Source: Escherichia phage phAPEC8
Reading direction: 5' to 3' (one strand)
Sequence record: NC_020079.1
Length of the DNA: 64,000 bases
A program made the position numbers and the translations under genes. Positions 6,534-27,520 of the stretch are shown here, in pieces; the first letter of the stretch is position 1; each line of letters starts with the position of its first letter. Under the pieces are notes generated by a model. That model was not told the DNA's origin. It saw nothing but the letters and a program-made list of their open reading frames with translations, and did not search any database.

Positions 6534-7408
6534 TTTCTCTCCGCTAATTTGAGTAGGTATTGCCCGTACTCTGTTTTCTTCAGTGAGTTTCCATGATACA
6601 CCAAAGTCTCTAAAGAAATCCACCCTTTTTTGAAAGCAATTTCTTCCAAGCACGCAATCTTCAATCCTTGACAGTTCTCAATAGTCTGCACGAATTGACC
6701 AGCTTCCATCAGACTGGCGTGTGTTCCTGTGTCAAGCCAAGTAAATCCTCGTCCGAGAACTTCCACTTGTAACTTCCTGTCTTCTAGGTAGCTGCGATTG
6801 ATATCAGTGATCTCCAGTTCTCCACGCGCGGAAGGGGTTACTTCTAATGCACGTTGAATAACAGAGTTATCATAGAAATACAAACCTGTGACAGCATAAT
6901 CTGATTTAGGATTTTCAGGTTTCTCTTCAATAGAAATAGCTTGACGATTACTCCCAAATTCAACCACACCGAATCGTTCAGGATCTTTCACCAAATACCC
7001 GAAAATACAAGCTCCGCCCCAAACATCTACCATCTCACTGGCGTTAATCAGTAGTTTACCAAAGCTTTGTCCGAAGAATAGGTTGTCACCTAAAATAAGA
7101 GCAACAGAGTCTTCTCCGATAAAATCTTTACCTATGATGAAAGCTTCCGCAAGACCTCGTGGCTCGGATTGGATTGCGTAAGTGAGTTTTATCCCAAACA
7201 TAGACCCATCTCCGAGAAGATACTCAAAGTCTTCCTGATCACCTGGTGTGGTGATGATTAAAATATCCTTAATGTCAGCCAACATCAATACCGATAAAGG
7301 GTAGTAGATCATGGGTTTGTCATACACAGGGAGCAATTGCTTGCTCACACTGCGTGTTACCGGATGAAGGCGGGTTCCACTTCCTCCCGCCAAAATAATA
7401 CCTTTCAT
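6530..7408 (-). CDS. rmlA: glucose-1-phosphate thymidylyltransferase
   Basis: [19 protein letters not shown]-terminal nucleotidyltransferase signature; 292 aa. Confidence 0.9.
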
Positions 7409-26647: not shown

Positions 26648-26896
26648 ATGTCTCTATTAGAAAAACACGTGTTTGAAGATGGTAACGGCAATGCAGTTTT
26701 TCTTTTCCATCCAGAAAAATACACATCTGAAAACAATGGTACAACTTCTATTGTAATCACTAAAGATGTTAAAGTTATTGATTTCTTGGCTCTGATGCGA
26801 GAGATGGATCTTGAAATTAATACTTTTAACGCAGAAGCTTTGGTTGTTGCTCTTCTGGAAAAGAAAGATAGTGAAGAAGTAGCAGAATATGCTTAA
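26648..26896 (+). CDS. hypothetical protein
   Basis: Start moved to the ATG at 26648 (MSLLEKH..) with AGGAGG RBS; track ORF starts earlier in the overlap. Confidence 0.4.
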   Translation: MSLLEKHVFEDGNGNAVFLFHPEKYTSENNGTTSIVITKDVKVIDFLALMREMDLEINTFNAEALVVALLEKKDSEEVAEYA

Positions 26897-26903
26897 ATAA
26901 CTA

Positions 26904-26933
26904 TTGACAAACGTATCCTTCATATGTTAGGAT
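26904..26933 (+). promoter_or_regulatory. sigma70-like promoter upstream of the tRNA operon leader
   Basis: CTATTGACA -35 box, about 17-nt spacer, weak TAnnnT -10. Confidence 0.4.
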
Positions 26934-27142
26934 ACGTTCATCAAGTGTGGTAACAGGGTCGTTGACTTTTGTTAAGAGGGGCTTGCACTGCGGTAGTGTT
27001 AGAGACTACTTCTTCAGAGGTTAGCTACCAAAGAGGAAAAGGAATAGTCTCGGCTCAAGAACTTTTACGCTGAAAGTTGGGCTTGGTCTTAGAGAATGTA
27101 GCGGTTCTCTACAATCGTCAGCGTCTCTGTTACCACATTTAT

Positions 27143-27217
27143 GGCCCTGTAGCTCAATGGGAGAGCTGTCGGCTCATAACCGATAGGTAGCTGGATCGAA
27201 ACCAGCCAGGGCCACCA
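27143..27217 (+). tRNA. tRNA-Met (anticodon CAT)
   Basis: Hand-folded cloverleaf: acceptor GGCCCTG/CAGGGCC, anticodon loop CTCATAA, encoded CCA; T-loop ATCGAAA. Confidence 0.7.
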
Positions 27218-27219
27218 AC

Positions 27220-27294
27220 GTCTTTATGGTGTAATGGATAGCACAGGAGTCTTCTAAACTCTTAGTCAAGGTTCGATTCCTTGTAAAGACACCA
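27220..27294 (+). tRNA. tRNA-Arg (anticodon TCT)
   Basis: Acceptor GTCTTTA/TAAAGAC, anticodon loop CTTCTAA, T-arm CAAGG-TTCGATT-CCTTG, CCA. Confidence 0.7.
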
Positions 27295-27490
27295 GAACAT
27301 TTTAACATGAATTAGCTCAAGTGATTTGAACCCACTACTGATCATGGTGGCAGAGAATGAGGCAAGTATGTCAGACATTATAAACAAAGGCCACGGTTAC
27401 ATTAGAAGACATAAATGCTCGAAGAGCACCGTTCGTGGAGAACGGGGGTTGGTGGAGTCACCATTCATGGTAAAATGTTTTAAAAAACTA

Positions 27491-27520
27491 TTGACAACTA
27501 ACATTATTTTATGTTAGATT
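27491..27520 (+). promoter_or_regulatory. sigma70-like promoter inside the tRNA operon
   Basis: CTATTGACA, 17-nt spacer, TTAGAT/TAGATT -10; a few nt upstream of tRNA-Ser. Confidence 0.45.

Follow-up and report, generated by a model that had tools for sequence, protein, structure and literature searches.

An apparently undescribed structured RNA family of phage tRNA islands, with a member between promoter and tRNA-Met in the tRNA cluster of Escherichia phage phAPEC8

The window analysed here is a stretch of 64,000 nucleotides from Escherichia phage phAPEC8 (NC_020079.1), a phAPEC8-like E. coli myophage of the genus Phapecoctavirus, subfamily Stephanstirmvirinae. It contains a cluster of 11 tRNA genes on the + strand (27143-29148, as called by ARAGORN), flanked by leftward early and DNA-metabolism genes on one side and by rightward terminase and structural genes on the other. 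The element under study occupies the 209 nt from 26934 to 27142 and lies, as a sequence-only reading of the window had placed it, between the operon promoter, which ends at 26933, and the gene for tRNA-Met, which begins at 27143. The 1.1-kb stretch around it is 99.8% identical to Escherichia phage ETEC-TG and many others. The promoter consists of TTGACA (26904-26909), a spacer of 18 nt, TG (26925-26926) and TAGGAT (26928-26933), and is kept in phiWec179, PsgM04F and the IMG/VR contig L006. Transcription is predicted to start at about 26940-26943, at the foot of helix P1; with the promoter just upstream, the transcript would thus begin a few bases from the foot of the terminal stem. The features of the locus are the following:

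26904-26933, + strand: sigma-70-type promoter with an extended -10 (10/12 hexamer matches, TG present)
26940-27142, + strand: whole predicted RNA, ~200 nt, with its ends predicted from the promoter and from the tRNA 5' end (RNase P site)
26943-26965, + strand: 5' arm of the terminal stem, P1 (26943-26958) and P1b (26960-26965), from fold and covariation
26969-27073: 34-codon ORF with a TTG start, annotated as hypothetical protein in the ETEC-TG and PsgM04F records
26971-26977, + strand: junction strand GUUAAGA (family consensus GUUAARA), in all clades of family alignment A7
26978-26983, + strand: 5' strand of P2, with its partner at 27085-27090, from covariation
26985-26999, + strand: P3 hairpin (GCACU...AGUGU), from covariation
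27002-27051, + strand: P4, a three-tier arm, from fold and covariation
27052-27083, + strand: P5 (27052-27057/27078-27083 and 27061-27067/27071-27077), from covariation
27085-27090, + strand: 3' strand of P2, from covariation
27091-27112, + strand: P6 hairpin (27091-27096/27105-27110) with loop UGUAGCGG, followed by a conserved CUAC, from covariation
27118-27140, + strand: 3' arm of the terminal stem, P1b (27118-27123) and P1 (27125-27140), from fold and covariation
27143-27217, + strand: tRNA-Met(CAU), called by ARAGORN and Rfam; one record labels the gene tRNA-Ile

Two neighbours of the element have features of their own. The promoter carries an inverted repeat within 26904-26944, from the -35 hexamer to the start site (AACGTATCCT ... 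AGGATACGTT), which is preserved in phiWec179 by paired changes (AGCGTGTCTT ... AAGATACGCT); the second promoter of the cluster (27491-27520) has a similar repeat, CTAACAT ... ATGTTAG. These repeats could be operators or could form hairpins in read-through transcripts. T4-like Mosigvirus phages, HX01 and mobillu among them, carry a tRNA with 96-97% identity to the tRNA-Met gene (27143-27217), and jumbo phage 121Q carries one with 84% identity; such near-matches across phages indicate that tRNA genes evidently swap between phage families. Elsewhere, these relatives of tRNA-Met stand ~80 nt after an upstream ORF, without a long leader.

The 209-nt stretch folds with a minimum free energy of -76.8 kcal/mol, compared with -54.8 +/- 4.4 kcal/mol for dinucleotide shuffles (z = -4.95), and none of 200 shuffles folded as stably. 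Positions 26943-27140 form one domain shut by a terminal stem of 22 bp: 16 bp (26943-26958/27125-27140), a one-base bulge and a further 6 bp (26960-26965/27118-27123). Two bases (AU) separate the 3' arm of this stem from tRNA-Met. The 10-bp inverted repeat on which the sequence-only reading had built its case exists, at 26947-26956 (GTGGTAACAG) and 27127-27136 (CTGTTACCAC), 2 and 1 nt away from the starts it had given, and is the core of the longer terminal stem. The local hairpin GAGAA-TGTAGCGG-TTCTC that it had also named is located at 27092-27109 and is helix P6. The architecture is fixed: P1, then P2 enclosing P3, P4 and P5, then P6. P1 shuts a three-way junction of P1, P2 and P6, and P2 shuts a four-way junction leading into P3, P4 and P5. 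The three-way junction is shut by pairs between GU (26971-26972) and AC (27111-27112), which are present in the minimum-free-energy fold of the window and are predicted independently by RNAalifold in the other two clades. The three tiers of P4 are 27002-27007/27046-27051, 27009-27015/27033-27042 and 27019-27021/27027-27029. ARAGORN and an Rfam scan give no tRNA in the stretch, which agrees with the absence of a tRNA fold noted from the letters. No Rfam 15 family was matched on the stretch, either at the gathering threshold or at E <= 10, and no Rfam family was matched on four related loci in other phages.

Covariation was assessed at two depths. For the close lineages, a plain MAFFT alignment of 11 distinct Phapecoctavirus sequences was scored against the curated structure: across the three Phapecoctavirus lineages, 99.1% of the cells are paired and 10 pairs have changes on both sides, compared with 0-2 pairs in slid controls in which the partners were moved by 1-3 columns. 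These changes are located in P2, P3, P4, P5 and P6, while the terminal stem is invariant there. In the family alignment A7 (11 sequences), 95.9% of the cells are paired, a value inflated because A7 was fitted to the covariance model; both-side changes occur in 43 of 68 pairs, several of them counted in many related sequences since the family is small and has three deep clades. The slid controls of A7 yield 6-17 such pairs, and all measures exceed those of all 500 shuffles. When all clades are aligned together with MAFFT, only P1 and a portion of P6 come out, P1 with clear compensatory changes; this alignment is too diverged, and clade-wise alignments therefore served as the independent control. 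In these, RNAalifold on sequence-only alignments of Phapecoctavirus, of Tr1 with the Klebsiella phages and of the Salmonella podophages returned the same architecture in all three. Compensatory changes are thus found in seven helices, which argues for selection on RNA structure, and the covariation across related phages that the sequence-only reading had named as a check is strongly positive.

The helices differ in how their sequence is kept. The terminal stem is invariant in Phapecoctavirus and wholly different in Tr1, the Klebsiella phages and the Salmonella phages, with the pairing preserved; both-side changes affect 15 of its 22 pairs in the family alignment, and the length of P1 ranges from 13 to 23 bp across the family, with 13 bp in the Salmonella podophages. 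The first pair of P2 varies by lineage (G-U, C-G, U-A). P3 keeps the sequence UGCAY...RUGU family-wide, followed by KAG, and its inner two pairs covary (CG, UA, AU, GC). P5 has a conserved GGYU, an AAG bulge on the 5' side and a GC in the loop, and 6 of the 7 pairs of P5b change on both sides across the family. All six pairs of P6 do so as well, and its loop reads GUAGC in Phapecoctavirus and GGCA in every other clade. Sequence conservation is densest at a few spots, namely the GUUAARA strand, P3, the bulge in P5 and the loops at the tips of P4, P5 and P6. Several tertiary motifs were considered and set aside. In Phapecoctavirus, the P6 loop (GUAGC) can kiss the P4 tip (GCUAC) of the same molecule, but the other clades do not conserve this pairing, and the reading was dropped. 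A contact between the P5 and P6 loops on a GC/GC core is compatible with all clades, but its register shifts, and it is therefore not claimed. K-turn, T-loop and RNase P-like motifs, noticed by eye, are not kept across lineages.

Relatives of the element were collected by transitive blastn and model searches, using a covariance model from the close lineages (R1) and a second model (R2). The covariance-model match at 26934-27142 itself scores 248 bits (E ~1e-69). By blastn, the stretch is found in 69 phage records only, 63 of them at >= 98.8% identity; the other six, the phiWec179 group and PsgM04F, are ~80% identical. IMG/VR adds a third Phapecoctavirus sub-lineage, contig L006. Beyond the genus, R1 finds a full-length match in Citrobacter phage Tr1 (L005, 4560-4764; 41.8 bits, E ~1e-10), which has the same helices and a completely different terminal-stem sequence. 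Klebsiella phage phi1_175008 scores 47.1 bits with filters off and IMG/VR contig L022 scores 53.9 bits. With R2, the Klebsiella phages FKP3, KP13-26 and KP2025 score 89, 88 and 83 bits, and the Salmonella podophages FSL SP-058, UTK0002 and TR2 (Schitoviridae, N4-like) score 62, 51 and 46 bits; the model-scored members under R2 span 46-129 bits. Two further Salmonella podophages, SP-076 and As2, are included on a blastn basis with no model score, at 99.4% identity to the SP-058 copy. The RNA is ~165-205 nt long across the family. Scanning metagenomes for the P1 arm returned two true copies besides one chance match. A first pattern scan of viral contigs gave no match; a looser scan for the core pattern gave 44, among which only the known clades score with the covariance model. 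In representative bacterial genomes, the pattern scan found two chance matches and no copy, and blastn against 5,426 E. coli genomes gave no match, which rules out a host origin of the RNA in these genomes. R1 with filters off found no second strong copy in the window, only weak matches to other long hairpins, e.g., 28167-28263 and 28561-28662. The first of these overlaps a nearly perfect hairpin of ~35 bp at 28178-28263, right after tRNA-Thr, which the family model matches weakly on both strands because of its long stem only; it is a candidate RNase III site.

The 34-codon ORF inside the element is spurious. Three lineages have its frame open, and it carries a hypothetical-protein annotation, which is what the reading of the stretch as a gene for a 34-residue protein can call upon. 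However, the TTG start has no ribosome-binding site, a 1-nt insertion in the P3 loop breaks the frame in the natural isolates REC, ukendt and UP17, and substitutions fall on the three codon positions as 6:9:6, i.e., without codon-phase bias. Across the homologous RNA of Tr1, the annotation places two different CDSs, both spurious. The likelihood that this stretch encodes the annotated protein is accordingly negligible, and the statement that the region has no credible ORF holds. The annotations of ETEC-TG, the WPEC phages, PsgM04F, Tr1 and FKP3 show hypothetical CDSs across the RNA, and several GenBank records that place hypothetical proteins over the RNA thus call for correction.

All family copies lie in tRNA islands. 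Most of them adjoin a tRNA, and the side varies: the gap is 2 nt before tRNA-Met in the window and elsewhere 0-8 nt after tRNA-Cys, tRNA-Asn or a tRNA-like gene. In Tr1 and phi1_175008, the start of the RNA meets or falls inside the CCA that the tRNA-Cys gene encodes, and a ribosome-binding site and an ORF come next; in L022, it stands behind another tRNA-like gene and, in the Salmonella phages, behind tRNA-Asn. The nearest called tRNA upstream, tRNA-Cys, ends ~45 nt before the RNA in KP2025 and ~130 nt before it in FKP3, where the gap probably holds an uncalled tRNA-like gene, as judged from sequence common with L022. The ORFs downstream of the RNA are mutually unrelated between phages, and the next ordinary tRNA downstream is tRNA-Arg(UCU) in all clades. 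In the FSL SP-058 record (L026, NC_021772.1), the RefSeq tRNA features lie ~1.1 kb off the tRNAs found by ARAGORN and Rfam, and this displacement puts the family member under a 'tRNA-Lys' label.

The label of a structured leader given to the stretch by the sequence-only reading calls for a correction: the structure is borne out, whereas the RNA is not specifically a leader, because in other phages it follows a tRNA and precedes ORFs or other tRNAs. A cis-regulatory leader controlling transcription of the tRNA operon, be it a riboswitch, an attenuator or a processive antiterminator like the HK022 put RNA, would suit the situation in Phapecoctavirus, in which the element is the first thing transcribed from the operon promoter. 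Yet 26934-27142 has no terminator-like site or alternative pairing, the element is not promoter-proximal in the five other lineages, where unrelated genes follow, and no copy of it accompanies promoters two and three of the cluster (27491, 28453). Neither the constant position nor the expression platform of a riboswitch or attenuator is found, position and downstream genes differing between clades. We consider such a leader highly improbable; of the alternatives of a processed or a regulatory RNA offered by that reading, a processed, free-standing RNA fits the anatomy and a regulatory role finds no support.

The island position bears on a further explanation, that the element is what remains of an intron, or of a mobile insertion bounded by terminal inverted repeats, that came to lie between promoter and tRNA. 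In phi92 and Tr1, a homologue of the gene upstream of the element (26648-26896) is followed by a tRNA almost at once; in Tr1, no leader is found behind this homologue, and the RNA lies elsewhere in the island. In phi92 and three phi92-type IMG/VR contigs, tRNA regions of 7-8 kb contain no family member. Absence from the same site looks like an insertion, and the terminal inverted repeats and the different island positions between clades add to that picture. Against it stand the single copy per genome region searched with none in E. coli genomes, the lack of a linked endonuclease or transposase, and the compensatory changes in seven helices, which leave only a very slight chance for a relic.

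A self-cleaving ribozyme of a new class, freeing the end of the adjacent tRNA, would account for the position right beside tRNA ends, above all in Tr1 and phi1_175008 with P1 beginning at or within the encoded CCA, and for the compact multi-junction fold with few invariant junction nucleotides. HDV-like theta ribozymes do sit beside phage tRNAs. The element nevertheless matches no Rfam ribozyme family even at E = 10, a pseudoknotted core was not detected, and the window copy lies upstream of its tRNA, the 5' end of which is made by RNase P anyway. A ribozyme is therefore very unlikely.

The main rival holds that the element is a cis-acting module for processing or insulation, the excised piece having no function of its own: a spacer that folds on itself so that the adjacent tRNAs fold right, with its duplex as an RNase III substrate or as a barrier to RNase E or exonucleases. 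The RNA usually adjoins a tRNA, and the terminal stem in the window is a near-perfect duplex of 16 + 6 bp. A duplex of this kind, 22 bp, is long enough for E. coli RNase III, which requires about two turns (20 bp or more). Moreover, all longer spacers of the cluster fold with their ends paired, and conservation extends to a second spacer (27710-27836), with compensatory changes in the stem that closes it; spacers may therefore have a structural role of a generic kind. On the other hand, many tRNA pairs in the same clusters are only 2-10 nt apart, which makes a 200-nt module unnecessary for processing. The interior junctions and loops are kept across two phage families, a conservation that insulation does not need; P1 of the Salmonella podophages, at only 13 bp, is short by RNase III standards; and the element stands 5' of a tRNA in one clade and 3' in others. 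Taken together, a purely cis-acting module appears unlikely, if less so than the other alternatives weighed thus far.

The second spacer and its neighbours deserve a description in their own right. The stretch 27710-27836, between tRNA-Ser(GCU) and tRNA-Tyr, is a second conserved structured RNA of ~127 nt, in which an A/U-rich stem of 11 bp encloses three hairpins. It is common to the phi92-type phages (L004, L008, L009), where the closing stem changes from G-C to A-U and from U-A to C-G and where two of the phages have a 45-nt insertion in one arm. The spacer after tRNA-Arg contains an ORF of 49 aa (27368-27517) with GAGG ahead of its ATG, which is likely a real small ORF; the C-terminal half (CSKSTVRGERGLVESPF) is conserved in L006 and the N-terminal half differs. 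It has no Pfam match. The spacer as a whole (27295-27480) folds with its ends paired. At 27529-27615 lies a type-II tRNA missed by ARAGORN, with the anticodon loop CU-UGA-AA (Ser, UGA); in Rfam, it is matched by the tRNA-Sec model only, at 37.4 bits and below threshold, and tRNA-Ser(tga) is called at the same place in relatives (L006, 4915-5004). Two more spacers, 28013-28102 and 28992-29069, resemble tRNAs that are degenerate or of unusual form: each is closed by a stem similar to an acceptor stem and contains a hairpin similar to a T arm (GCAGGTATCGAATCCTGC and GCTGGTTCGAATCCAGC, respectively). No tRNA is called at either place by ARAGORN or Rfam. At 29235-29289, Rfam gives a weak, below-threshold RyhB-like match (29.4 bits, E 0.009), the end of which is an intrinsic terminator (stem 29264-29282 and a T run), the only good one behind the tRNA cluster.

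The reading that we prefer is that 26940-27142 is the gene for a free-standing structured non-coding RNA, freed by the promoter start and by RNase P and binding a partner through exposed elements; we regard this as probable. The seven-helix fold, the conserved junction and loops, the transfer between two phage families and the variable position next to tRNAs argue for a self-contained RNA gene rather than a leader or spacer, and as both side and neighbours vary between phages, the RNA behaves as a self-contained module. Being common to myoviruses and N4-like podoviruses, it moves with tRNA modules, with its fold under selection. The lack of the RNA in phi92-type relatives, at least in their tRNA region, counts against a free-standing RNA. 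On the proposed route, transcription by the polymerase of the host would begin from the extended -10 promoter, slightly ahead of P1 by a few bases, and cleavage by RNase P at the 5' end of tRNA-Met (27142/27143) would free the 3' end of the RNA. Such a cut in front of tRNA-Met follows from the universal pathway of tRNA 5' maturation. The released RNA of ~200 nt would have both termini held in the 22-bp stem, would presumably be stable and would require no further processing. In the other phages, the RNA would be internal to the tRNA transcript, with its 5' side set by tRNA 3'-end processing. It would then act in trans by binding a partner via the exposed loops of P4, P5 and P6 and the A-rich junction. 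An RNA-seq paper for the genus Phapecoctavirus was not found in the literature. The hosts of the family are easily grown E. coli, Klebsiella and Salmonella phages used for therapy, which makes genetics, Northern blots and structural work straightforward.

The apical loop of P4 offers a more specific clue to how the RNA may act. It carries a palindrome, UAGCUA at 27022-27027 in the window, which differs by clade (UAGCUA, UGAUCA, CGUUAACG) and is invariant inside each clade, though the P4 stem varies. The chance of three such clade palindromes is ~0.0013 in a simple simulation and 0.005 when corrected for four loops, the argument being post hoc. The clade-specific palindromes hint at self-association through kissing loops, and loop-loop pairing of two copies through P4 would be the most specific testable idea of how the RNA may act. 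A wider version, in which the RNA pairs with itself via the P4 palindrome into a dimer or a larger RNA-only assembly and acts in trans on some host component with a link to tRNA or translation (luring away a defence nuclease that attacks tRNAs would be one example), is doubtful; it would make the RNA a small relative in kind of ROOL, GOLLD and OLE.

The family can be set beside several known systems. Retroviral dimerisation initiation site hairpins expose in their apical loop a 6-nt self-complementary sequence, the identity of which varies between lineages. The P4 loop is alike in having a lineage-variable sequence that retains self-complementarity; it differs in its unrelated biology and in that the case for the phage RNA rests on three palindromes, with a chance of ~0.001-0.005. 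The RNase III stems that bracket rRNAs and the early RNase III sites of T7 are long-range duplexes. They resemble the present element in that flanking sequences form a duplex around a structured RNA within a polycistronic stable-RNA transcript, and they differ from it in that here the duplex varies from 13 to 23 bp and the enclosed domain is itself conserved; measured against the 20 bp or more of RNase III duplexes, the window has 16 + 6 bp and P1 of the Salmonella podophages 13 bp. As judged by ARAGORN and the Rfam tRNA clan, the element has neither the cloverleaf nor the T arm of a tRNA or tRNA-like RNA.

Y-like RNAs form a further point of reference. YrlA (RF02553) gives no match on the element, and the annotation of the near-identical phage ETEC-TG lists no Ro60-like product within 50 kb around its cluster (the equivalent of window positions 1-50000). 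In phi1_175008 (L019, 5635-7601), the island encodes a protein of 476 aa with DUF7788 and DUF2828 domains and a weak match to the Ro60 vWA domain; behind the gene lie two YrlA-like matches below threshold (36 and 34 bits), apart from the new RNA. L022 has one YrlA-like match of 42 bits (6775-6890), and a DUF2828 gene is present in the KP2025 island. For phi1_175008 and L022, this suggests a putative Ro60-like protein with Y-like RNAs inside a phage tRNA island.

Non-tRNA RNAs of unsolved purpose are a recurrent feature of phage tRNA islands: rnaC and rnaD of T4 have been known since the 1970s, and ROOL and GOLLD were added later. The T4 pair (species 1 and 2 stable RNAs) is still of unknown function (PMC9697503). 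It is similar to the new RNA in being small, non-tRNA, inside a phage tRNA cluster and adjoining a tRNA. The order in T4 is tRNA-Arg(UCU), rnaD, rnaC; the pair thus adjoins tRNA-Arg(UCU), the tRNA that comes first among the ordinary ones downstream of the new RNA in each clade. Homology is ruled out by R2, which with filters off gives no match on T4 70908-71171 (L076, 4909-5172). Furthermore, rnaC is tRNA-like with a T-arm-type hairpin, unlike the new RNA, which has no T arm, and rnaC and rnaD measure 119-139 nt compared with 165-205 nt for the new RNA. ROOL and GOLLD are ornate phage and prophage RNAs that are often found near tRNA islands and owe their quaternary structure partly to kissing loops (bioRxiv 10.1101/2024.12.08.627333). 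The new RNA shares with them the tRNA islands and a palindromic apical loop, but it is three to four times smaller, its oligomerisation is a hypothesis only, and its phages are virulent with hosts among the Enterobacteriaceae. The Rfam models of ROOL and GOLLD match neither the window (gathering threshold, E <= 10) nor the members in other phages. A catalogue of viral candidate RNAs holds ~10,000 entries, with motifs of 29-151 nt (PMC10690425). Matching neither Rfam 15 nor T4 rnaC or rnaD, the structured RNA family described here is real, conserved and apparently undescribed, and it adds a compact, covariation-backed RNA of ~200 nt to the tRNA-island RNAs of unsolved purpose.
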